From assembly GCA_018015315.1 (NCBI GenBank), contig GCA_018015315.1_3629.1: a stretch of 64,000 nt of DNA; one strand, given 5' to 3'. Shown piece after piece: positions 220 to 60,347 of the stretch. This DNA comes from a phage. A model generated the notes under the pieces. It made no database searches, was not told the origin of the DNA, and saw only the letters and a program-made list of their open reading frames with translations. Position 1 is the first letter of the stretch; the number at the start of each line of letters is the position of its first letter. The position numbers and the translations under genes are program-made.

Positions 220-2556
220 TTACCAAAGGTCGGTAGACATGAAGTTGATATCTTTATTGTTCTCCCACTCAAGTTTTGCATCAAATATTTTGTTAAACTC
301 ACCCTCATCTATTGAAATCGTGATTTTCCCATCACTGATCTCTAAAGGTAGCATTTCCATAGTTCTTAATTGAGAAGCAAAACCAGGGCCACCCGGCAAC
401 GGAAGAGTCCCGCCAGGCAAGGTGTCCAAAGGATTAACAAACCCGTTACCTCCCGATATGATATCTTTGCGAATCATATCGCTGATAGTATCCAGCTGCT
501 GATTTCTTTCACTTAGTGGGTTGTAACGGTCATTAAATAATTCCCCGGCGCTTAGTATTGTACCGATAATACCCAGCTTACCGAGCAGACCAACTTTGCC
601 ACCAGGTGTCTTGAGGCCACCTCCACCTTTTCCTGCCGGAGCTCCACCACCAGACCCTTCTGTAGTAGCGGCACCCGCTGCTCCAGCTGCACCCCTTAGA
701 GAGTTAAGGAATTTAAAGGTTTTTACAAGCATGGATGCCATGACAAAACCTTTTGTTAGGGCGTTGACTACCAGCATGATGGCAGCAGCAAACCCTGCCC
801 ATTTAGCATAGCTAAAGGTGTCATGAAGCTCTTCAGAATATTCCTTCGTCTTAGCTGTTATGAATCCCCATTTAATCCCCCATTCAAGGAAAAACATGCG
901 GATCTTGACTATAGTGTTGTTTAGTTCACCAACTACCCAGTTAAGGCCTCTCACAAACCCGCTAACAAAATCACCAGAGGCATCCCACACAAATTGCAGA
1001 GTCTCACCAGTGCGGATTAGTGTATAATAGAACTCTGTTAGTTCGTCAGACCAACGGGTGAACAGTTTCTGACGAGTCAGTTCGATGAAGGTTTTCAGTC
1101 TGTTTTCTGCCAGCACGTTAGACTTCTGCATTCTTTCATAACCAGCTGCAGATGCCTCGTTCATGTACTTAGCCACATACTTCATGATCTTGGCTGTTTT
1201 AACCTCACCTTTCTTCATCATGTCCATGAACTGATCCATGGAGAGTTCAGAAAGACCAAAAGCCTCTTTGGTGGCCTTGATAAAAGGTTCGTATGCACCA
1301 GGCAATGCTTCAGCAAGTTGTTGCTTCAGTTCTTCGGACATTACTTGTCCCTTGCCAAGCATCTGTTGGATTGCCATAATACCGCGCTGGTATTTTACCT
1401 CATCGGCACCATAAGCAGCAGCATACTGGGAGTATGCAGAAAACAGCTCATGCACTTCCTGATTTGTCATCTGGTTTTTGGCGTTTACCGACATCTGGGC
1501 GTAACCTTGAAGACCAGATTTGAGATCAAAACCAAGACGCATAGCCTCTTGCTGGACAAACGCAACCTCACTGTTAGCTTTGTTTGGATCTCCAGTAACA
1601 GCTGTAAGAGCAGCACTTGCCCCCTCCATCATGTGACCGGATCTGTTAACCGCAGCAAATCCAGAAAAAGCCGTATACGCAGCTGTTGCATTAATAACAG
1701 ATCTACGTAGGTCTCTCATGGCATCGCCTAGTGTAAGCGTTTGGCTGGTGGCGCTTTTAAACCCAGACTGCAGCGCTGACAGGTGGGCGTTAAAGGTTGA
1801 CTTCTTCATCTCCCCGCGAGCAAACCTGGACTCTAACTCTGAGTATCCTGGCAAGCTTCCACGGAATCCGGCCCCATACTTGGCAGAAAGTCTTATCGCT
1901 GAGTTGTAGAGGTGGGTTCTCCTTGCCTCACGATCCGACATAAGCCTATTATCCATACCAGCTTTACTGTCTCTTCTTAGCTGTCTATGATAACGATTCA
2001 TAGCGGCTGTCTGAGCTTTCACAAGGTTAGGGTCGGAAGCCACACCACCCATATTAGGGTTACCGGGGATATATTTGAAAGATTTGGCATTAGCCAAAAC
2101 TCTTGCCTTAGGTGCCTTATAACCACCGTAAGACACTGGTGCAGATTTGGCAGCCTTTTTGGCCTCTTTAGCTTGCTGCTGGTAGAACTTACGCATCCTA
2201 GCCATTTCTGGATTTTTAGCGGTAAGATTACCTACAGCTTGTTTACGTCTCGCATTCTCCCTACGTTCTATTGCAGCCCTTACTGCAGCCTCTTTCTTGG
2301 CCTGTGCTACGCTCTCTCTGTGCAGTTTAGCATTTGCCTGAGATTGCTGTCTGGCAACCCTCTGCATTGTCTGCTGGGTTTTAACAGCTACCGCCTGCCA
2401 TCTACTCATGGGGTTGGATGAGTTAAAATCCTCGCCCAGTTTCCTGAACTCCCTCCCAATACTGCGAATTTTCTCTACAGCTTTTTTGTAGGAGGAGTTC
2501 TCTATCTCAAAGCCAATCTTGTTGACTGTTGTGGCAACTATTTTGTTTGTAGCCAT
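220..2556 (-). CDS. tail tape measure protein
   Basis: 778 aa; Ala/Lys/Gln-rich coiled-coil N-half, Gly-rich segment near C-terminus; sits after sheath, tube and chaperone genes. Confidence 0.6.
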   Translation of the reverse strand: MATNKIVATTVNKIGFEIENSSYKKAVEKIRSIGREFRKLGEDFNSSNPMSRWQAVAVKTQQTMQRVARQQSQANAKLHRESVAQAKKEAAVRAAIERRENARRKQAVGNLTAKNPEMARMRKFYQQQAKEAKKAAKSAPVSYGGYKAPKARVLANAKSFKYIPGNPNMGGVASDPNLVKAQTAAMNRYHRQLRRDSKAGMDNRLMSDREARRTHLYNSAIRLSAKYGAGFRGSLPGYSELESRFARGEMKKSTFNAHLSALQSGFKSATSQTLTLGDAMRDLRRSVINATAAYTAFSGFAAVNRSGHMMEGASAALTAVTGDPNKANSEVAFVQQEAMRLGFDLKSGLQGYAQMSVNAKNQMTNQEVHELFSAYSQYAAAYGADEVKYQRGIMAIQQMLGKGQVMSEELKQQLAEALPGAYEPFIKATKEAFGLSELSMDQFMDMMKKGEVKTAKIMKYVAKYMNEASAAGYERMQKSNVLAENRLKTFIELTRQKLFTRWSDELTEFYYTLIRTGETLQFVWDASGDFVSGFVRGLNWVVGELNNTIVKIRMFFLEWGIKWGFITAKTKEYSEELHDTFSYAKWAGFAAAIMLVVNALTKGFVMASMLVKTFKFLNSLRGAAGAAGAATTEGSGGGAPAGKGGGGLKTPGGKVGLLGKLGIIGTILSAGELFNDRYNPLSERNQQLDTISDMIRKDIISGGNGFVNPLDTLPGGTLPLPGGPGFASQLRTMEMLPLEISDGKITISIDEGEFNKIFDAKLEWENNKDINFMSTDLW

Positions 2557-2610
2557 GGTTTCCTCATAATAAAAAGGGCCAGATCCCAGAAAAGGAATCC
2601 GGCCCTTAGA

Positions 2611-2859
2611 TTATCCTCTCCTGCGCTTAGCTTTCGCAGCAGCTGCGGCAGCCTTCTGCTCCCGCTCCATTTCCCTGTTTTGGACGGTATCTAGGAATTC
2701 TTCAATATCAAGATACTCACAGAGCTTCAGGAAATACGCCATATCTGCAAGATTTAGCGATTCAAAATTTTCCCCTTTGAAATTCTTGAGCACCCTGCAC
2801 CAAAGAAAGTCGAACCAGTTGAGTGAACTGTTCTTGGCTGCCCACTCACTGGCCCTCAC
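2611..2859 (-). CDS. tail assembly chaperone extension ORF (possible -1 frameshift product)
   Basis: 82-codon frame, -1 relative to upstream 2871-3344 ORF and open across its stop; GTG start; position as lambda G/GT. Confidence 0.35.
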   Translation of the reverse strand: MRASEWAAKNSSLNWFDFLWCRVLKNFKGENFESLNLADMAYFLKLCEYLDIEEFLDTVQNREMEREQKAAAAAAKAKRRRG

Positions 2860-2870
2860 AACAACCTTGC

Positions 2871-3344
2871 TTATTCCTGCTCTTCCGGAGTCTGATCCAG
2901 GTTGTTCACCTGCTGAATCATACCCATCTGCTGTAACATCTCCAGAAGGCTTCCTAAACCGTCTTGTGTGAAAAAACAGCCGTAGTTAACCTCCAGAACC
3001 TTACCTGCCAGCTTAATCATCTCCAGCAGATGCCCCGCAAACACAACATCCGGGTTAAGCTTATCCACACCATCTACGGTAATATCTTCGAACAAGATTT
3101 TAAATAGCTCTTCAATAGAGTTATCATCAAGTTCTTGGAACAGGTAAGCCAGAGCAGTAGGAAGGACCTCTGCCATGTTCTGACCGCCTGAGATAATAGA
3201 TCCACCGATAGCACCTAGCGGGACAGCCACAATCTTACCGATTTTAGGCATGTTTTTCATTGCTTTCATCGGTCCCCAATGGGTGATCACAAAGTTGTGC
3301 CCTGCTAAATCAATCTCTGTTGTAGGTCTAAAGTTTATAGCCAT
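2871..3344 (-). CDS. putative tail assembly chaperone
   Basis: 157 aa acidic protein between tail tube and tape measure genes. Confidence 0.4.
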   Translation of the reverse strand: MAINFRPTTEIDLAGHNFVITHWGPMKAMKNMPKIGKIVAVPLGAIGGSIISGGQNMAEVLPTALAYLFQELDDNSIEELFKILFEDITVDGVDKLNPDVVFAGHLLEMIKLAGKVLEVNYGCFFTQDGLGSLLEMLQQMGMIQQVNNLDQTPEEQE

Positions 3345-3505
3345 TTTATAGCATCCTTATTAGTCATGTTGTGCACCATATTTGTGTATTTTACCATGAT
3401 TAGGGTGCATTGTCAATTTAACCTTTCAAGCAATTCAAGAACGTGTGTCAAAACCATAAAAGCAAAAAGCCCCACCCGAAGGTGAGGCTTATGCTAAAGT
3501 TGCCC

Positions 3506-3979
3506 TTAGATAATACCTGCAAGACCTGCTAGGCCAGTAAGAGCACCAGTGATGTTATCACGGTTGAGCCATGCATCCAGAATACCGATATCCCAGTCCA
3601 GTTGACCTACTTCGGTTCCGTAAGTCAGGTCAGGCTGTTTCTGGATCCAACCGATTGTGGAAATACCAGGACCCTGGCTACCTTCCAGCAGAACCGGGAA
3701 GAATACCAGACCAGTAATCGATGCCTGTTTCTGCCAGTCAGAAAGGTAAGCGTTCCATACAGAAGTGTTCTGCAAAGATACAGTCATAACACCAGATTGG
3801 TTACGAGACAGGGCCGCAGACATTTCGCCATCCACACCAACGTGAGGGTAGATGTTGTCTTCGTTTCTTGAAACAACGATCTTGGTGTCAGCAGCGAAGC
3901 CAGTGACACGCTGCTGCATCAGGTACAGTTTGACCTTTTTAGGATCATAAGCATAAGGAGTTAAAATTTGAGTTTCCAT
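3506..3979 (-). CDS. tail tube protein
   Basis: 157 aa ORF immediately downstream of sheath gene; high-expression codon usage. Confidence 0.5.
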   Translation of the reverse strand: METQILTPYAYDPKKVKLYLMQQRVTGFAADTKIVVSRNEDNIYPHVGVDGEMSAALSRNQSGVMTVSLQNTSVWNAYLSDWQKQASITGLVFFPVLLEGSQGPGISTIGWIQKQPDLTYGTEVGQLDWDIGILDAWLNRDNITGALTGLAGLAGII

Positions 3980-3989
3980 CTAGTCTTCC

Positions 3990-5366
3990 TTATTCAGTCA
4001 TTGCAACAGCATTGGTGGATTTAGAACCAACTTTGTCCAGAAGGACGTTGATCCGGATACGAACGAAGTGCAGGGCGTTGTTATACACCAGTTCTACTTT
4101 CACACCTTCCAGAACACGAGCAGCCAACTGATTGGTTGGAATCTCTGCACGTTTAGGAACTGTGATGATCGGGTCGTAGAACACATTGTTGTCTTCGTCA
4201 AAACCTGTCAGGATCGCACCATTCTTAATGCCAGTGTTGATTGGGTTGTTCATCAGGACAGACTTGATAACCGGAAGATCATCATCAGACATCTTCATGC
4301 TTAAACCCATGTTGGAGCGACGATGCATGTACCCAAACATAGATTCTTCAGATCTGAACTTGATCCAGTGTGCAAAACGAATAGCGTCTGCATACTGACC
4401 TGAAGCACACTTACCTTCCCAGAAAGCACCAACACCGTTAATCATTCTGTAGAAGTTAACGTGGTTTTCCCAAATAGCCATACGCTGAGTTAAAGTCAGA
4501 GACGGTGCAATCACACCTGGCATCTGTTTTAAGTGCAAGCTGTCGCCGTAAGACGGATCGTTGGATGCCATAGCACCTATGATACCACCCTCCGGGAAGT
4601 CCTTATCTGCACGAGGATCGTACATGCCGACACTGTCATATTGTGCAGCTTTCAGTTTGGTGGCGATGTTATTATCTTTACCCGTCACATCTTCTGCAGT
4701 AGAGTAGACATGCAGCTTGTAGTTAGCCTGAGCCCACTTAGCACATGCTTCAATGTCGGTGTGGTCTTCATGGCACAGGAAGTACCAATTGTCACGCTCA
4801 GCATTGATCTTATCAACTACTGTAGAAGGTTTTTCAGCATTGGCGATATTTTTGATTGTATAGTTACCAGTATGGTAACCAACAGTACAGTCACCAGTGA
4901 TGGTGAGAACACCTTCAGAAGCCTCTACAGTGATATCGTCCAAGTTATCATCTGCTTCGATTTTAGTCTTCATTGACTCTGCAATCTGAGTTGCAGCTGT
5001 TCCACCAGAGATAGGGACTATCAAAGAGGTATTGTAGCTACCTTTTGCAATAGTCATTACGACATCGGTATCAGCTGCGGCAGCAATACCTTTAAAATCT
5101 ACAGTGGTCTTTTCTTTGGCCTGTCTGCCGATCATAACGTATTGTGGAGGGAATACACCACCAAAAGCTTTTGCTGCAAACTCATACGCTGCAGAGCCTT
5201 GTGCGAAACCATCTTCCACCATCTGATCCAGCTCTGCATATACGCGAGCTCGCTCAGTAAAGTTGTTGTGGATAGCGATGAACAGGGGAGTTTCGAAACC
5301 TACAGTGTCAATAGGCTGGGTTCCGAGGTTAACTGTAACATCTACCACTTTATCTAAATATGGCAT
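3990..5366 (-). CDS. contractile tail sheath protein
   Basis: 458 aa; size and position (before tube, chaperones, tape measure); strongly biased codon usage. Confidence 0.6.
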   Translation of the reverse strand: MPYLDKVVDVTVNLGTQPIDTVGFETPLFIAIHNNFTERARVYAELDQMVEDGFAQGSAAYEFAAKAFGGVFPPQYVMIGRQAKEKTTVDFKGIAAAADTDVVMTIAKGSYNTSLIVPISGGTAATQIAESMKTKIEADDNLDDITVEASEGVLTITGDCTVGYHTGNYTIKNIANAEKPSTVVDKINAERDNWYFLCHEDHTDIEACAKWAQANYKLHVYSTAEDVTGKDNNIATKLKAAQYDSVGMYDPRADKDFPEGGIIGAMASNDPSYGDSLHLKQMPGVIAPSLTLTQRMAIWENHVNFYRMINGVGAFWEGKCASGQYADAIRFAHWIKFRSEESMFGYMHRRSNMGLSMKMSDDDLPVIKSVLMNNPINTGIKNGAILTGFDEDNNVFYDPIITVPKRAEIPTNQLAARVLEGVKVELVYNNALHFVRIRINVLLDKVGSKSTNAVAMTE

Positions 5367-13131: not shown

Positions 13132-14679
13132 TTAGATAAAACGCTTGAACATAGAAGGTGATGAGATTGATGGAATCACACAAGGAAGTGCTACCTCCTC
13201 TTTCTCCAGGAAATTAATTGCAGAAGCTACACAGTCAGCCCAGTCGTCTTTTCTGTTAAATGTTGATCTTTCCCCGTTGAATTTTTCAAGTTCGGTCAGA
13301 AATGCTTCCAGAGTATCAGGATGGAAACTGGATTTTACAATCCTCACCATCCCTTGTTGGGCAAGATTGGCAAAAGGTGAGAACCTTGTCAGTTTAGACT
13401 TGTTGGAAGGCATTGGGTCTTCTTCAACCCTGAACCCTTCTGCGAGCAAGGATCTGGATGAGGTTAAGAACTCACTCTTACCTGCCTGACCAGGGTCCAC
13501 AGAGAATACGATTATACAATCATCACCATCAAACTGCGCCTGTTTCCTGATGATCACATCTCGTTCACCAGCCTTTTTACAGAACTTGCCTTCCAGACCT
13601 GTGGAATACCTCCCGTCATCCACGTTTTCAGGACAATAATCCCCTGACAGGTAATAAAATCCGTCGCTATCTTTACTTACCTTAACACTGGCGGTAAAGT
13701 CAGGAAATTTATTACCGGAAGTTCTCTCGGTTCCTGCCTTATCCCATGCCCTGCAAGATACTGATCCAAGGGGTACTCTATCGGCATCACGAAGGAAAGA
13801 TCTTTGAAAATAGTTTGCACCCTCAGGCTTTGCAAACCAGTTACCATGGAGAAGCTGAGCTTTTTCCAGCTCTGGTAGACCTTCGAGGAAAGCAAGGTAT
13901 TCTGGGTTGTCTCTCAAACAGACAGGATTATCGAATATTGTTGCGCCTATGAACGAGAATGACAACGGTCTTGGCTTGATCTCCACACCCAGTCCGTTAA
14001 CCGTGGTGTATTTCTCTATCAACTCTTCCTTAGAGTCTCCCCAAATAAATTCACCGTCGCGTCGGATAAAATATCTTTTCTTACCACATTTCTCCGGATC
14101 TGGATACCCTTCATCGTCCAACCACCATCTAACCAGTTTGGCAAGCATGTGTTCTGAATCAGGGTTACAGCTGATAACCATCCTTGATGGATACTTTGAC
14201 TGAGATCGCAGACGAGACATCAGGTAGTCTATCTGCTCCCATTCGAACTGCGTGCCCTCATCGAAGCAAACCATGGTGTACTCAAGCCCCTGATGGTTAA
14301 GCTTATCTTGTACATACTCCATGTGGCAGTATTTTACAACAGCTCCCTTTTTGCTTCTATCCCACTTGCCAGTGCTCGGATCAAACCGTGGAAAAATGAA
14401 CTTATGATCCTTCTCTCTAAACTTTGGCTTAATGTTTTCAGGCAGATCACTATAAATAGCTACTGCTTTAGGCCATAGTCCACCCTCACCTTCCAACTGC
14501 GGGGTTGTTCTTCGGAACATAACCACAGAGCTGTGGGGGTCATCAATAATTTTAAGCGGCATCAACTGCAAGAGGAACGACTTGCCAGACCCTGCGGCAC
14601 CGCCGATTACCAAAATATCTGCATCGTTTTCGAGGATCATCTTCTGCTTTTCAGAACACGGTCCGTAAATCTTAGACAT
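13132..14679 (-). CDS. terminase large subunit
   Basis: 515 aa; Walker A GGAAGSGKS near N-terminus, Walker B-like VCFDEG, C-terminal nuclease-sized domain. Confidence 0.85.
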   Translation of the reverse strand: MSKIYGPCSEKQKMILENDADILVIGGAAGSGKSFLLQLMPLKIIDDPHSSVVMFRRTTPQLEGEGGLWPKAVAIYSDLPENIKPKFREKDHKFIFPRFDPSTGKWDRSKKGAVVKYCHMEYVQDKLNHQGLEYTMVCFDEGTQFEWEQIDYLMSRLRSQSKYPSRMVISCNPDSEHMLAKLVRWWLDDEGYPDPEKCGKKRYFIRRDGEFIWGDSKEELIEKYTTVNGLGVEIKPRPLSFSFIGATIFDNPVCLRDNPEYLAFLEGLPELEKAQLLHGNWFAKPEGANYFQRSFLRDADRVPLGSVSCRAWDKAGTERTSGNKFPDFTASVKVSKDSDGFYYLSGDYCPENVDDGRYSTGLEGKFCKKAGERDVIIRKQAQFDGDDCIIVFSVDPGQAGKSEFLTSSRSLLAEGFRVEEDPMPSNKSKLTRFSPFANLAQQGMVRIVKSSFHPDTLEAFLTELEKFNGERSTFNRKDDWADCVASAINFLEKEEVALPCVIPSISSPSMFKRFI

Positions 14680-15782: not shown

Positions 15783-15859
15783 TGGTCTCCACGGAGTGAT
15801 TCGAACACTCGACCTCCTGATCCCAAATCAGGCGCTCTACCAAGCTGAGCTACGCGGAG
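15783..15859 (-). tRNA. tRNA-Pro (anticodon TGG)
   Basis: cloverleaf by eye: 7-bp acceptor stem (one G-T), anticodon loop TTTGGGA, T-loop TTCGAAT, encoded CCA. Confidence 0.8.
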
Positions 15860-15870
15860 TATTTACTATT

Positions 15871-15945
15871 TGGTGGCCCTGGGTGGAATTGAACCACCGT
15901 CTGGCGATTATGAGTCGCTTGCTTGAACCTTCCAGCTACAGGGCC
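15871..15945 (-). tRNA. tRNA-Met (anticodon CAT; initiator, elongator or Ile-lysidine not distinguishable)
   Basis: perfect 7-bp acceptor GGCCCTG/CAGGGCC, loop CTCATAA, T-loop TTCAATT, encoded CCA. Confidence 0.8.
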
Positions 15946-15946
15946 T

Positions 15947-16022
15947 TGGTGCTGATGGCAGGACTTGAACCTGCAACATATTGATTACAAATCAATTGCA
16001 CTACCAATTGTGCTACATCAGC
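15947..16022 (-). tRNA. tRNA-Thr (anticodon TGT)
   Basis: acceptor GCTGATG/CATCAGC, anticodon loop TTTGTAA, T-loop TTCAAGT, encoded CCA. Confidence 0.8.
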
Positions 16023-16029
16023 AAAAAGG

Positions 16030-16126
16030 TGCTAGGTGATGGAATCGAACCATCTATGTATTCAACGACTACCTCGTCTATTTTCAGGATTAAAAATCCT
16101 CGCCCTTGCCAAAGGGCTTACCTAGC
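16030..16126 (-). tRNA. atypical type-II tRNA-like gene (Leu-like scaffold, apparent anticodon TTT)
   Basis: perfect acceptor GCTAGGT/ACCTAGC, D-arm, perfect T-arm GATGG-TTCGATT-CCATC, discriminator A; anticodon hairpin AGGATTTTTAATCCT; about 30-nt variable region with GACGA/TCGTT hairpin; CCA not encoded. Confidence 0.45.
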
Positions 16127-16224
16127 TCAGTATGTTGACCATGTTGCTAGTCGGCGATGACGACTGTAACATTTGATAATCCGGTTCTGCTTCCGGCTTT
16201 CGCTTAATTACAAGGTCAACAATG

Positions 16225-16315
16225 TGGCAGAGGATAATGGAATCGAACCATCATCGAGTCATCCTCAACGGGACGGTTTTCAAGACCGCTTGAGCACCAT
16301 TGCTCCCTACCCTCT
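16225..16315 (-). tRNA. tRNA-Ser (anticodon TGA)
   Basis: type-II: acceptor AGAGGGT/ATCCTCT, anticodon loop CTTGAAA, about 20-nt variable arm, discriminator G, encoded CCA. Confidence 0.7.
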
Positions 16316-16432
16316 TTTATTATAAACAATACTGATAATGACACTGATTTTCGAGCAGTTAGTGACTAGTATAAACGACGATAAATACCAATGCCATTAT
16401 CTGTATGATTTATGCATCTAAAAATATAAATT

Positions 16433-16519
16433 TGGTGGGGAGTGGTGGAGTCGAACCACCCGAGTCGCAATGACAATAGATTTACAGTCTACACCGCTAC
16501 CTCTACGGGATAACTCCCC
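16433..16519 (-). tRNA. tRNA-Tyr (anticodon GTA)
   Basis: type-II: acceptor GGGGAGT/ACTCCCC, anticodon loop CTGTAAA, long variable arm, discriminator A, encoded CCA. Confidence 0.8.
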
Positions 16520-16523
16520 AATT

Positions 16524-16598
16524 TGGCACCCCGTACTGGACTCGAACCAGTGTCAACGGCTTAGAAGGCCGCTGCTTTATCCACTAAGCTAACAGGGC
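16524..16598 (-). tRNA. tRNA-Arg (anticodon TCT)
   Basis: anticodon stem-loop GCGGC-CTTCTAA-GCCGT, T-arm ACTGG-TTCGAGT-CCAGT, acceptor with two G-T pairs, encoded CCA. Confidence 0.75.
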
Positions 16599-56997: not shown

Positions 56998-57117
56998 AGC
57001 ACCGAGCCCACACAGGTTCCTCATGCTAAAGCATGGCCTGAAGAGGCAAACGTGCATAATTCCTGTGCATTGTGACGTATAAAACCCGTTCACACTCTCA
57101 TTTCCAGAGGAGATTTC

Positions 57118-57333
57118 ATGAAGATAGAAATATTTGGTGGAGTTGACAACACTCGTGGCCTGATTTACCTTGAATTCGATGAATCATACCTGCCAGAGGT
57201 GTTAAATATAGACTCTGTTGCTGAGGCTTTGGGAGTAAACCCTAAAGAACTCCACTCTTGTGCTGAGATCGATGGTTGGGAAGAGACCATGAACATTGAT
57301 TTCAGTGAAGTAGAGGATGAACCGCTGGACTGA
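57118..57333 (+). CDS. small acidic protein
   Basis: MKIEIFGG N-terminus like other family members; last plus-strand gene before non-coding region. Confidence 0.45.
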   Translation: MKIEIFGGVDNTRGLIYLEFDESYLPEVLNIDSVAEALGVNPKELHSCAEIDGWEETMNIDFSEVEDEPLD

Positions 57334-57683
57334 CACACAATTAGCTGCCAGGCTAAAGTGCTGGAAGCACCTATAACACATCTTTCAACTAAATTTCCTA
57401 CCACCACAATCACTTACCTCCCACACATGACTGTTTGCTTGTTTAGTGAGCAGTCATGCCTTGACATTCTTGCCTATCCTGATAAAATTAAGTTCTTCTC
57501 TTTTCTTTTACCGAGTAATTCGGGTTTTCTGTTCTCTTCGGTTTGAAGGGGTATGGAGATACACCTGAGTGAACAGGGTGAACAACCGAACATTTGGCTA
57601 TGGCATTAGCATGGCGAAGCGGACGGGTGACGAAAGAGGGGCCGGAGGACACCAGTCACTGCCATATGGTATATGGGTGATAA

Positions 57684-58224
57684 CCTGAAGAGTCTGAATA
57701 AGTGTTTAAGTACCAGTCAGAGGAAAAGGTGAATGGTAGCCGAAGGGGGAGGGGGGTTTCTTGTATCTTTAATTTGTATATTATGTATACACTTGTAAAC
57801 CAATCTCATTTGAATTTGTTTACCACACAAAGTGGATAGAGACAAATATTACCTATTAAACTTGAATTATTTATAGAAAATACCACAACACTACTTAAGT
57901 CTTTGATTTTACACACAAATCCTGCAGATATTCACCCTCCATATTTAACATACTTGTAACATATTCCATACTCTACCTGCCCGATCAATTCACCCAACTA
58001 CATCCCCATATTTTCCCTGTCTGTACTACCCCTGCCCCGCCGGGAGTCCCGTCATATCTGGCTTTCCAGCAAATATCACACCCACAAATATCATTGCCTG
58101 AAGAGGGTTTCATCCCATAGTACATGCCTTACCTGAAGAGCGCTTCATATACCCCGTAAATTTTTTAATTGACACCCTCCCCGCCGCCGGAGGGGGTTGG
58201 CTTTTCCCACACAGACCTGAAGAG
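57684..58224 (+). repeat. dispersed direct repeat CCTGAAGAG (4 copies)
   Basis: exact 9-mers at 57684, 58097, 58132, 58216 in non-coding DNA. Confidence 0.7.
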
Positions 58225-58785
58225 CCAGCCAGAAATATCTGAACAGGTCCAGCTATGCCACGATTTTGTGCTTGTCCTACAGGAGTGCTTCCCTGTCAGG
58301 AGCCGGTAGCGACTGGAGTGCTGCCAGGCGGACGAAATGGGAATACTTCTCATTCTTATAACAATTCTCAAATATCGAGGCAGTGAGACAAATTAATAGG
58401 CTTTGCCGTTCACACAATGGCACAACATTTGCAGCCTATCTTGTGGGGGGTGAATGAGAATACCTATCATTGCGAGAATAGTTATCATTACGGGCAATTT
58501 AACATAATACCCATTATGCGCACCACTGGCGATATATACAGGGGTTAATAACATGGTGGACTGTTTACGCACATTACAATTGCATTACTTATTATTTGTG
58601 TGGGATATAGTTAGCCACCAACAGATTGCATAATAACCTGCAGACTTCCAGCCGTCCAGACGCCTAAGCGCCTACACAATAAGGATTATACATACACAAC
58701 TGAATGTAAACAGGGCCGCAAAAATGCTACCATACAAGATTGTAAATTTTTCATGCAGCACTTGACAAAGAGGAGAAAAACTTGT

Positions 58786-58875
58786 CTGACATACTGGTGA
58801 CATAATATGACACTTTAGACACAATAGTGACATACTGGACACGATATGACACACTGGGCATAATTGACATACCTG
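58786..58875 (+). repeat. iteron-like array of (A/T)GACA(C/T)A motifs at 10-11 bp spacing
   Basis: about 8 copies, including TGACATACTGG twice and TGACACACTGG once. Confidence 0.7.
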
Positions 58876-58983
58876 ACTGTTTACGCTGTCACTATTCACT
58901 CGCTTACATGCTTAATAGACTACATGACTAATAGTTTACATAGCTAACTGTTCACGTATAGATTGTTTACTTAAAAATGATAA

Positions 58984-59264
58984 GCCATGCCATTCGTTTG
59001 CATGATAAAGATTAGCAAGTTAATAATCTTTCACTGGCTATGCCAGGTGACCTTTTGTCACCTCTTCGGGTGTTTCTATGACATAATATAAAAGCAGGGC
59101 AACTATTAGCAGATCTATAGTTGCCTTGCTTGTTATGTCATGATTAACTAAATACAAGGCAACTATGATCTGATTAATAGATTGCAGACAAACTATCACG
59201 GGGGTGATGGTTACTGCTTTTATATTATGTCGCGACTCCGTCGCGCCATGCCATTCGTTTGCAT
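58984..59264 (+). repeat. 20-bp perfect direct repeat GCCATGCCATTCGTTTGCAT (2 copies)
   Basis: copies at 58984-59003 and 59245-59264. Confidence 0.8.
59098..59125. repeat. palindrome GGCAACTAT-10 bp-ATAGTTGCC
   Basis: 9-bp inverted repeat; further half-site copies near 59160 and 59265. Confidence 0.75.
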
Positions 59265-59880
59265 AGTTGCCTTATTGTTACAGATAAAATAATTATATTG
59301 TTAATTATTTCTTATCTTTCTCTTAGTCATCTAATGATTCCAGTCAGTATAGTAATGTACAGTAAACATTAGACGACTAAAGATTTATCTGCTTATAATA
59401 ACTTACCGTGACAATTCCGGACTGTTTACGAAAAATGTTGACACCTGAGCTGATTTATGTTATGCAATTTACACGAATAATTATTTTATGCAGGTATTGA
59501 CTATTACGTTATTCTATGGTCGGAATAAATACTTAGCGGACTATAGAATGGTGACGCTACGTGAATTCTGGAATTTAGTGGCTATAGTTATACCCGATTT
59601 TTCACGTAGAACACGCTTTTGTGGTTATGTAAGTGTATGACTTATAAAGATTTTTAGTTGTTGACAAGGCACTGAAGATATGCATCAGGTTAAATTTTGT
59701 GCAATAGCTGCATTACGTGCAATTTTGGAAGGAAAAACGTGTAAAAATGGCCCTGCTACCACACAATGAAAGATTATGCAATAGCTATTTTACATGTATA
59801 TTTGTACAGTGTGTGGGATTGATGGCTAGTCAATTATTCCACTTGCCAGGCTGGGCCGTTTGTGGTAGGAGAAATACAGA

Positions 59881-59909
59881 CAAAAAGAAAGGGGCCTTTT
59901 AAAGCCCCT
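59881..59909 (-). terminator. rho-independent terminator
   Basis: GGGGC..GCCCC hairpin followed by U-tract on minus strand; 20 bp downstream of stop of 59928-60347. Confidence 0.6.
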
Positions 59910-59927
59910 GATAGTTTAGTTAAGAAA

Positions 59928-60347
59928 TTATAATGATTCGTATATTTGATAGATTCGATTTGCCAGGTCATTACGATAGCGGAATTTTTCATCACGCTTG
60001 ATCATCAGATCTTTGAAGCCATATTCTTTAAGCACTTCATTAACTTTATAGCGGCATACCTTCATATTATCTTGCGCGTCACCGATAAACTTGTTGCTAT
60101 GATGCATGGCTTTGATCTCTTCCTCCAGGACCAGGGCAACTACGCGGACCGGATCAAGCTGATATGCGGTAACATCAATGCGGCATTGTAAACGGCTTTT
60201 AACGTCTGCCACCGGATATACTGCAACCTCTTCCCCGTCAACATTCACAATAACCAGTTTACCATCAATTTCAAAACCTTTTGCGGCTGGGCCGTGACAA
60301 AAAGCGTTATCAAAGCTGTATGCGGGATTGTTAGATTTAATATTCAT
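59928..60347 (-). CDS. hypothetical protein
   Basis: 139 aa; own promoter and terminator. Confidence 0.5.
   Translation of the reverse strand: MNIKSNNPAYSFDNAFCHGPAAKGFEIDGKLVIVNVDGEEVAVYPVADVKSRLQCRIDVTAYQLDPVRVVALVLEEEIKAMHHSNKFIGDAQDNMKVCRYKVNEVLKEYGFKDLMIKRDEKFRYRNDLANRIYQIYESL

Follow-up and report, generated by a model that had tools for sequence, protein, structure and literature searches.

The repeat-rich non-coding region of a Vequintavirus genome: a probable chromosome-end region with a nearly invariant 265-nt element

What is the function of a 2.6-kb stretch of phage DNA in which no gene can be recognized? The question is raised by positions 57340-59927 (2588 bp) of a 64,000-nt phage sequence (GenBank assembly GCA_018015315.1, contig GCA_018015315.1_3629.1; this whole stretch is called the window here), where a plus-strand and a minus-strand block of genes converge. 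An original prediction, made from the sequence alone, considered the region a candidate origin of replication, packaging site or non-coding RNA (ncRNA) locus. Sequence comparison identifies the window as belonging to an rV5-like myophage of the genus Vequintavirus, and the region is matched, at 85-96% identity, by 122 phage records, all of them rV5-like, about 100 (98-100) of which span at least 80% of it. As argued below, the region is very probably the chromosome-end region of a Vequintavirus, and it also harbors a nearly invariant element with a strong promoter of its own, which may serve a different purpose.

Probable terminal repeat and ends of the virion DNA

Two boundaries near the center of the region delimit the following features.

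58327-58786, no strand assigned: direct terminal repeat (DTR) of 460 bp, with left end GGCGGACGAAATGGG... and right end ...CTTGACAAAGAGGAGAAAAACTTGTC
58455-58494, plus strand: tandem 20-nt repeat inside the DTR (GAGAATAcCTATCATTgCG / AGAATAgTTATCATTaCG), recognized by reading the sequence

The segment 58327-58786, which occurs as a single copy in the window (a collapsed assembly), is assigned as a DTR because the records of relatives, as well as published papers, place the chromosome ends there. The record of phage Gotham (MT682716) carries an annotated repeat_region at 1-459 and at 136567-137025; the two copies are identical, begin with GGCGGACGG and finish with AAAAACTTGTC, which are the boundary sequences found at 58327 and 58786 of the window. 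The same end sequences are present in the record of EdH4 (MK327930), and that of YN3 opens at one boundary and closes at the other, with identical 458-bp copies at both ends. Thus, in the Gotham, EdH4 and YN3 records the same 458-459-bp sequence is seen at both ends of the virion DNA, of which the window would retain one collapsed copy. Fixed ends are a feature of seven records from at least four groups, which start at the equivalent of 58327 or end at that of 58786: starts were noted in four records (YN3, ECP2309 and two bovine isolates of one group) and ends in two (EcoIv14a_Aya and ECP2303). The literature is in line with these records, since the DTR sizes published for the genus are 459 bp and 458 bp, terminal redundancies of 458 bp were reported for EdH4 and HdK5 (PMC6563267), and, according to a paper on the terminal repeats of the genus, every virion genome begins with the same sequence. 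When the window was aligned with 18 relatives (19 sequences in all), the DNA just inside both boundaries proved to be conserved (0.97-0.99), while that just outside was rich in indels (0.23-0.69). The annotations of phages nomo and pangalan contain a 34-nt repeat_region whose offset from the start of the match puts it at about 58455-58494.

These observations could be integrated in a model, built by analogy with T7-type phages with short repeats, in which the two virion ends meet in this region, whether the DNA is a replicating concatemer or a collapsed assembly like the window. The terminase would recognize fixed sequences and cut at 58326/58327 and 58786/58787, and the DTR would be copied, so that each packaged genome has it at both ends. 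The flanking non-coding DNA would then be cis-acting rather than junk, with a highly conserved flank carrying clustered CCTGAAGAG and AAATATCA words on the left, and a phased GACAY array, 16-nt repeats and a large palindrome on the right. The gene blocks converge because they run toward the two ends of a linear genome. The gene for the large terminase, TerL, was located at 13132-14679 on the minus strand (phrog_979; Terminase_6 according to the rV5 supplement), and its open reading frame (ORF) aligns with the PHROG profile only from profile position 147 on, a partial match that fits the intron-split TerL described for rV5.

Two published statements point to a different mode of packaging. The rV5 genome paper calls that genome circularly permuted (PMC3606486), and in a 2026 paper headful packaging was inferred by PhageTerm for the Vequintavirus BpE1AUH. 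If the genome were packaged by the headful (pac) mechanism and circularly permuted, the region would be at most a pac site and its repeats would be unrelated. However, two end points are common to records of at least four groups, Gotham, EdH4 and YN3 carry identical 458-459-bp repeats, and defined terminal repeats are reported for the genus in two papers. Both boundaries are fixed in the records of several relatives, instead of the permuted ends without fixed right-hand termini that a headful phage should display. Moreover, the sequencing of rV5 relied on primer walking and on Sanger clone libraries at 3.6x, no analysis of the ends was reported for it, and neither the permuted (rV5) nor the headful (BpE1AUH) statement is based on mapped ends. 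Headful packaging is, for these reasons, considered improbable. Some further points weigh against a chromosome-end region. The window holds one repeat copy and no reads, and the ends of this particular phage are deduced by homology to its relatives; record boundaries mirror the analyses of those who submitted them; the likeness of the end motifs to those of Klebsiella phage KPP-1 (see below) is limited to short motifs, and blastn-short gave no significant alignment between this region and that of KPP-1; the link between the flanking repeats and the terminase is putative; and phage FV3 lacks the large palindrome, either by a real deletion, in which case this part would be dispensable, or by loss in cloning or assembly.

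With these points taken into account, the chromosome-end region remains by far the favored explanation, and among the roles first suggested for this DNA, that of a packaging site has been upheld by the records and papers that put the virion ends and a 458-460-bp DTR at 58327-58786. The packaging and terminus identity of the region is, in fact, already known for the genus. The published notes, in the portions that are accessible, give the repeat length only; they do not place the DTR in the non-coding box of rV5 (see below), nor do they describe the flanks or the invariant element. The practical consequence is that many of the approximately 120 Vequintavirus records have arbitrary opening points, are called circular or permuted, or contain invented small ORFs at this place, and that a 460-bp repeat at fixed coordinates in the "non-coding box" offers a simple rule for the orientation and annotation of phages that are candidates for therapy.

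Non-coding status and DNA around the repeat

In rV5 (NC_011041), the counterpart of the region spans 104020-106617 and corresponds to the gap between gp158 (+) and gp159 (-). In the rV5 genome paper (2013), the authors represented this gap by a grey "non-coding" box, of which they said that it "contained no ORFs"; they anticipated bidirectional terminators in the box and found none, and they could not define the origin (PMC3606486). The non-coding status has therefore been in print since 2013, and the present analysis agrees with it. The segment 57414-59927 (2514 bp) is the longest in the window without an ORF of at least 80 aa, and each ORF of 39-75 aa in the region was checked for intactness in the alignment. 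Outside 57488-57688, these ORFs are intact in just 0-12 of the 18 relatives and are disrupted elsewhere by frameshifts and stops. The two that stay intact fall inside the almost invariant block at 57488-57688, and their differences are mostly non-synonymous (11 synonymous vs 31 non-synonymous in one, 6 vs 27 in the other). A PHROG scan of ten small ORFs of the region matched no family, and no ORF was found in the region that is kept with mainly synonymous change or that belongs to a known family. The absence of credible ORFs from the longest non-coding stretch, as first described, thus holds, and the conserved small protein genes that would have spoken against it were not found among the 18 relatives.

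A gap of this sort might also be a functionless remnant of gene loss, that is, decayed genes or neutral spacer. Some annotators have called many small ORFs here (in MiataMamis, PP925834, 14 "hypothetical proteins" of 30-68 aa occupy 1519-4019, over the non-coding region and the terminal repeat), and indel-rich stretches exist within the region, both of which speak for decay. Nevertheless, most of the region exceeds the neighboring genes in conservation (0.95-1.00 vs about 0.92 in the 19-genome alignment), the small ORFs are not preserved among relatives, and the structured and repeated elements go far beyond chance. Decay is consequently regarded as the least credible of the explanations, with hardly any likelihood left to it.

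At the edges of the region, two structures could mark the ends of the converging transcripts.

57426-57458, plus strand: conserved 14-bp stem-loop CATGACTGTTTGCT...AGTGAGCAGTCATG, directly upstream of the promoter at 57461
59890-59909, minus strand: intrinsic terminator of the minus-strand gene block, with an 8-bp stem and a T-run, equal to t164 of the rV5 supplement

The prediction that terminators bound the region on both sides was correct for the right side, where the stem of the 59890-59909 terminator is kept and its loop is variable in relatives. It did not hold for the left side, as no canonical terminator was found directly 3' of the last plus-strand gene. The stem-loop at 57426-57458 has a predicted stability of -16 to -19 kcal/mol in 19 of 19 sequences, with substitutions that preserve pairing, and it is possibly the transcript end of the plus-strand gene block or a protein-binding site.

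The presence of several distinct repeat classes, also part of the original prediction, was substantiated by direct, inverted and tandem repeats and by an excess of one short word. The tandem arrays were confirmed by Tandem Repeats Finder (TRF) and by reading of the sequence. CCTGAAGAG has eight copies in the window against 0.58 expected from shuffled sequences, and five of them cluster in 57037-58224. The counts of AAATATCA and of AGGCAACTAT (four occurrences of the latter in the region) are not above chance over the whole window, and just their local clustering is notable. The features that lie between the invariant element and the DTR are the following.

58030-58240, plus strand: conserved island left of the DTR, with two AAATATCA (58071, 58086) and three CCTGAAGAG (58097, 58132, 58216)
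58270-58313, no strand assigned: hypervariable indel zone just outside the left DTR boundary, with identity of 0.50-0.69 and gaps of 0.26-0.39

Identity in the island is 0.89-0.99, and 0.95-0.99 in its core (58030-58149); it includes a terminator-like hairpin at 58175-58205 and is a candidate terminase-recognition zone. Insertions in the hypervariable zone measure 13-33 nt in relatives. On the right side of the DTR, the indel-rich zone corresponds to 58787-59079, and it opens a longer series of elements.

58787-58870, plus strand: GACAY array of 7-8 copies, 9-11 bp apart, beginning at the first base past the DTR
58904-58960, plus strand: 16-nt TTACATG-type tandem array (TRF period 16; spacing 16/16/14)
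58984-59003 and 59245-59264, plus strand: two perfect 20-bp direct repeats GCCATGCCATTCGTTTGCAT, which bracket the palindrome asymmetrically
59080-59231, no strand assigned: 152-nt palindrome closed by a perfect 18-bp stem, inside which hairpins are built on AGGCAACTAT / ATAGTTGCCT half-sites
59290-59880, no strand assigned: AT-rich mosaic of conserved blocks, in which TGCAAT...TTACRYG and GACTGTTTACG words are repeated

The GACAY motifs are found at 58788, 58799, 58809, 58818, 58829, 58838, 58848 and 58866, one per helical turn (TRF period 19), and the array shows an identity of 0.23-0.54 with large gaps, its copy number varying among relatives. The copy number of the TTACATG-type array is likewise variable, with insertions of up to 71 nt in relatives. 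The closing stem of the palindrome is the perfect 18-nt inverted repeat at 59080 and 59214; the half-sites are placed at 59097, 59117 and 59157 inside the palindrome and at 59263 outside it, and the predicted minimum free energies for the two strands are -79 and -72 kcal/mol (z -9.3 and -11.1). Of 120 records, 118 contain the palindrome. FV3 alone lacks it; its gap takes in the first 20-bp repeat and extends to the right arm of the palindrome, approximately the interval between the two repeat copies. In rV5, a 33-nt insertion occupies the central loop, after the equivalent of window position 59131, and about ten records, rV5 included, match this segment at just 80-90% identity. The notion that the palindrome and the 20-bp repeats constitute an element similar to a miniature inverted-repeat transposable element was rejected, as the direct repeats do not abut the inverted arms but lie 76 nt from one and 13 nt from the other. 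Finally, the mosaic has a GC content of 0.20-0.48 per 60-nt bin (most bins 0.32-0.38; 0.357 over 59001-60000), conserved islands at 59350-59379 and 59470-59499 (0.98-0.99), three exact copies of GACTGTTTACG counted over the region and the 36-nt repeat D4.

Some observations were made in passing. The first gene of the minus-strand block (59928-60347, minus strand) encodes the 139-aa homolog of rV5 gp159, which is missing in five of the 18 relatives (nomo, pangalan, APCEc02, FV3 and ev146) and is thus accessory. About 19 GenBank records labeled as "Campylobacter phage" (MG0656xx) belong to Vequintavirus and match this coliphage region at 88-95% identity; their host labels look wrong. Elsewhere in the window, the tRNA cluster at 15783-16598 includes a 99-nt tRNA-like gene (ARAGORN; 16028-16126, minus strand) with a four-base anticodon (atcc) and without an assigned amino acid.

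Promoter and invariant 265-nt element

In addition to the DNA that would be involved in cutting and packaging, the left part of the region contains a set of elements of a different character, arranged in this order.

57461-57488, plus strand: near-consensus sigma-70 promoter (TTGACA, 16 nt, TG-n-TAAAAT), with 11 of 12 hexamer matches and an extended -10
57495-57757, plus strand: ultra-conserved element (UCE) of about 265 nt, with an identity of 0.95-1.00 per 30 nt over the 19 aligned genomes
57760-57879, no strand assigned: AT-rich block immediately downstream of the G-run, with a GC content of 0.23-0.25 in 60-nt bins, a possible DNA-unwinding region

The UCE is nearly invariant in more than 120 Vequintavirus genomes. 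A 401-bp query that contains it (57400-57800) found 55 records at least 99% identical and 85 records 95-99% identical; for comparison, a 401-bp piece of the capsid gene was at least 95% identical in seven of 101 records, and a terminase piece at least 99% identical in two of 140. On these alignments, neither the capsid gene nor the terminase gene is as conserved as the UCE. Its invariance starts just past the -10 box and stops at G5AG6, and one relative is wholly divergent beyond that point. From 5' to 3', a CU-rich end is followed by a small hairpin with a T-run (57511-57535), a purine- and G-rich body, the G5AG6 run (57745-57757), whose length differs by one G among relatives, and then TTTCTT. 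Purines account for up to 0.72 of the plus strand, and the G-skew is +0.2 to +0.67 across 57520-57759, which bears out the G-rich tract noticed at the outset. The promoter, which is not in the rV5 promoter table, has in the most divergent relative a rewritten spacer that is 2 nt longer, with both hexamers retained. From the UCE it is some 570 bp to the DTR and about 1 kb to the right end of the chromosome.

The search for homologs of the UCE comprised blastn on E. coli genomes and 50,697 phage records as well as on IMG/VR and metagenome contigs, scans of IMG/VR and metagenomes with the exact core of the UCE, and nhmmer on the KPP-1 locus and the window. It recovered only Vequintavirus genomes of about 137 kb, or shorter contigs and records more than 95% identical, with no divergent homolog; the matching contigs that were checked align with the window. 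No copy was detected at the KPP-1 locus (nhmmer), the ORFs inside the UCE matched no PHROG family, and there was no match in E. coli and no paralog in the window. Against Rfam 15, the region and the UCE alone (E up to 10) gave chance-level hits only, the best reaching 8.7-22.5 bits against thresholds of 39-50, and the region contains no tRNA or tmRNA. In rV5 and the other records whose annotation was examined, the UCE is unannotated save for a few small ORF calls. Together with its strong promoter, it is an undescribed element and the new part of the region, and, judging from its sequence, it may be a new RNA, belong to an origin as its primer or R-loop portion, or act as DNA in signaling for packaging.

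One proposal is that the 57461-57488 promoter drives a structured RNA of about 265 nt (57495-57757), which would be made early and act in trans, for instance on a host protein or RNA. This is compatible with the rest of the region being a chromosome end. In its favor, the promoter agrees with the consensus at 11 of 12 hexamer positions, has an extended -10 and retains both hexamers despite an altered spacer; the invariance runs from the predicted transcription start to the G-run and exceeds that of capsid and terminase coding DNA; and the ORFs within it differ mostly non-synonymously and match no PHROG family. Besides, six one-sided changes retain predicted pairs, and a closing helix between the 5' and 3' ends is predicted, which is possible only on the plus strand because it is rich in G-U pairs. 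In contrast, the fold is no better than that of shuffled sequences (z -1.05 for the plus strand, 0.03 for the minus strand), and compensatory two-sided changes were found in none of 88 pairs (RNAalifold, 12 variants), the latter because the sequence hardly varies; a covariation test is impossible because no divergent homolog was found. The lack of an Rfam family, of a canonical terminator at the 3' end and of a UCE in the equivalent KPP-1 locus also count against an RNA.

A second proposal is that of a transcription-primed origin, for which T7 phi1.1/phiOR, T4 oriF, ColE1 RNA II and the mitochondrial pair of light-strand promoter and conserved sequence block II (LSP-CSBII) serve as models. The RNA from the 57461 promoter would form an R-loop over the G-rich 57520-57757, stall at G5AG6-TTT and prime synthesis into 57760-57879. 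The order of promoter, G-skewed tract (+0.2 to +0.67), G5AG6TTT and 120 bp with a GC content of 0.23-0.25 is as such an origin would have it, and the promoter is about 830 bp left of the DTR and points toward it, just as T7 phiOR, some 550 bp left of the T7 terminal repeat, points toward that repeat. The G-run of the UCE bears an apparent resemblance to human CSBII (GAAGCGGGGGAGGGGGGGTTTG), at which transcription is halted by a G-quadruplex and the primer for replication is generated; the likeness is close over 57745-57760 (GAAGGGGGAGGGGGGTTT). R-loop origins, however, depend on base composition and do not call for an invariant sequence of 265 nt. A change in skew at 104425-105475 was noted by the rV5 authors, who attributed it to the direction of transcription (PMC3606486), and converging transcription does explain such a shift. 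DnaA boxes are not enriched (11 in the window against 8.8 expected); the region has a single box (TTWTNCACA), with no initiator gene adjacent, and thus does not look like a DnaA-box or iteron origin. KPP-1, in turn, is without a UCE. Promoter, R-loop-prone G-rich tract and AT-rich block, present in order at 57461-57879, are the necessary anatomy of a transcription-primed origin and not its proof.

The UCE, with its promoter and the 120 bp of AT-rich DNA that follow (57461-57880), fits, by its sequence features, an origin or an ncRNA alike. An origin of this kind is held to be rather unlikely, and the ncRNA locus, while better placed, is put forward tentatively, at somewhat less than even chances. 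With the same reserve, the UCE and its own promoter might encode an RNA of about 265 nt restricted to Vequintavirus, either a trans-acting early RNA or the primer or R-loop RNA of an origin, whose sequence would be fixed by overlapping RNA function and DNA-level signals. Literature searches found no transcriptome paper or origin study on Vequintavirus. The map presented here sets apart the probable cutting and packaging DNA from this one outstanding element. Should the latter prove to be an RNA or an origin, no regulatory element acting in cis or in trans would have been defined in these phages before it.

Comparison with known systems

The closest systems are the termini of the genus itself. 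Those of Gotham, EdH4 and HdK5, together with the rV5 box, share with the region 85-96% DNA identity, the end sequences, the 458-460-bp repeat and the position in the gp158/gp159 gap, and differ from it in nothing essential. Next comes Klebsiella phage KPP-1 (Mydovirus, Vequintavirinae), for which a 514-bp repeat and T7-type packaging were deduced by PhageTerm, with two-fold read depth over the repeat and peaks of read starts at its borders (PMC9862379). There, too, the repeat is located between converging gene blocks. Its borders are GCTA|GACGGAC and CTTGACAAGGAGAGAGAATTGTGT, compared with GCCA|GGCGGAC and CTTGACAAAGAGGAGAAAAACTTGTC here, which yields G(G/A)CGGAC and CTTGACAARGAG as boundary motifs for KPP-1 and Vequintavirus. 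A 207-nt palindrome of unrelated sequence (z -8.7 and -8.0) lies a few hundred bp right of the KPP-1 repeat, and to the left of that repeat AAAATATCA and (C)CTGAAG words, which look AAATATCA- and CCTGAAG-like, can be read in the sequence. KPP-1 differs in the length of the repeat and in a left flank of only about 335 bp that lacks a UCE. Because the two regions otherwise do not align, the likeness across genera is one of position and short motifs only.

A more distant parallel is found in T5, for which a non-coding "injection stop" region near the terminal repeat, rich in repeats and palindromes, was reportedly described by Davison in 2015. In both cases, direct and inverted repeats abound in non-coding DNA of kilobase length beside a chromosome end. 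The T5 region is inside a 10-kb repeat, is tied to two-step DNA transfer and has DnaA boxes, whereas such boxes are not enriched here and no two-step transfer is known.

The T7-type short DTR (PhageTerm class "DTR, short"; 160 bp in T7) provides the functional model. The present phage is not a T7-like podovirus but a 137-kb myovirus with an intron-split large terminase of the Terminase_6 type, its promoter is of the host sigma-70 kind, the genes on both sides run toward the ends, and there is no sequence similarity. In spite of this, both have ends at fixed positions and a repeat that measures a few hundred bp; the SRL and SRR short-repeat arrays of T7 abut its terminal repeat, as the arrays do here, and the T7 phiOR promoter is aimed at the repeat from the right-end side, as is the promoter that precedes the invariant element.

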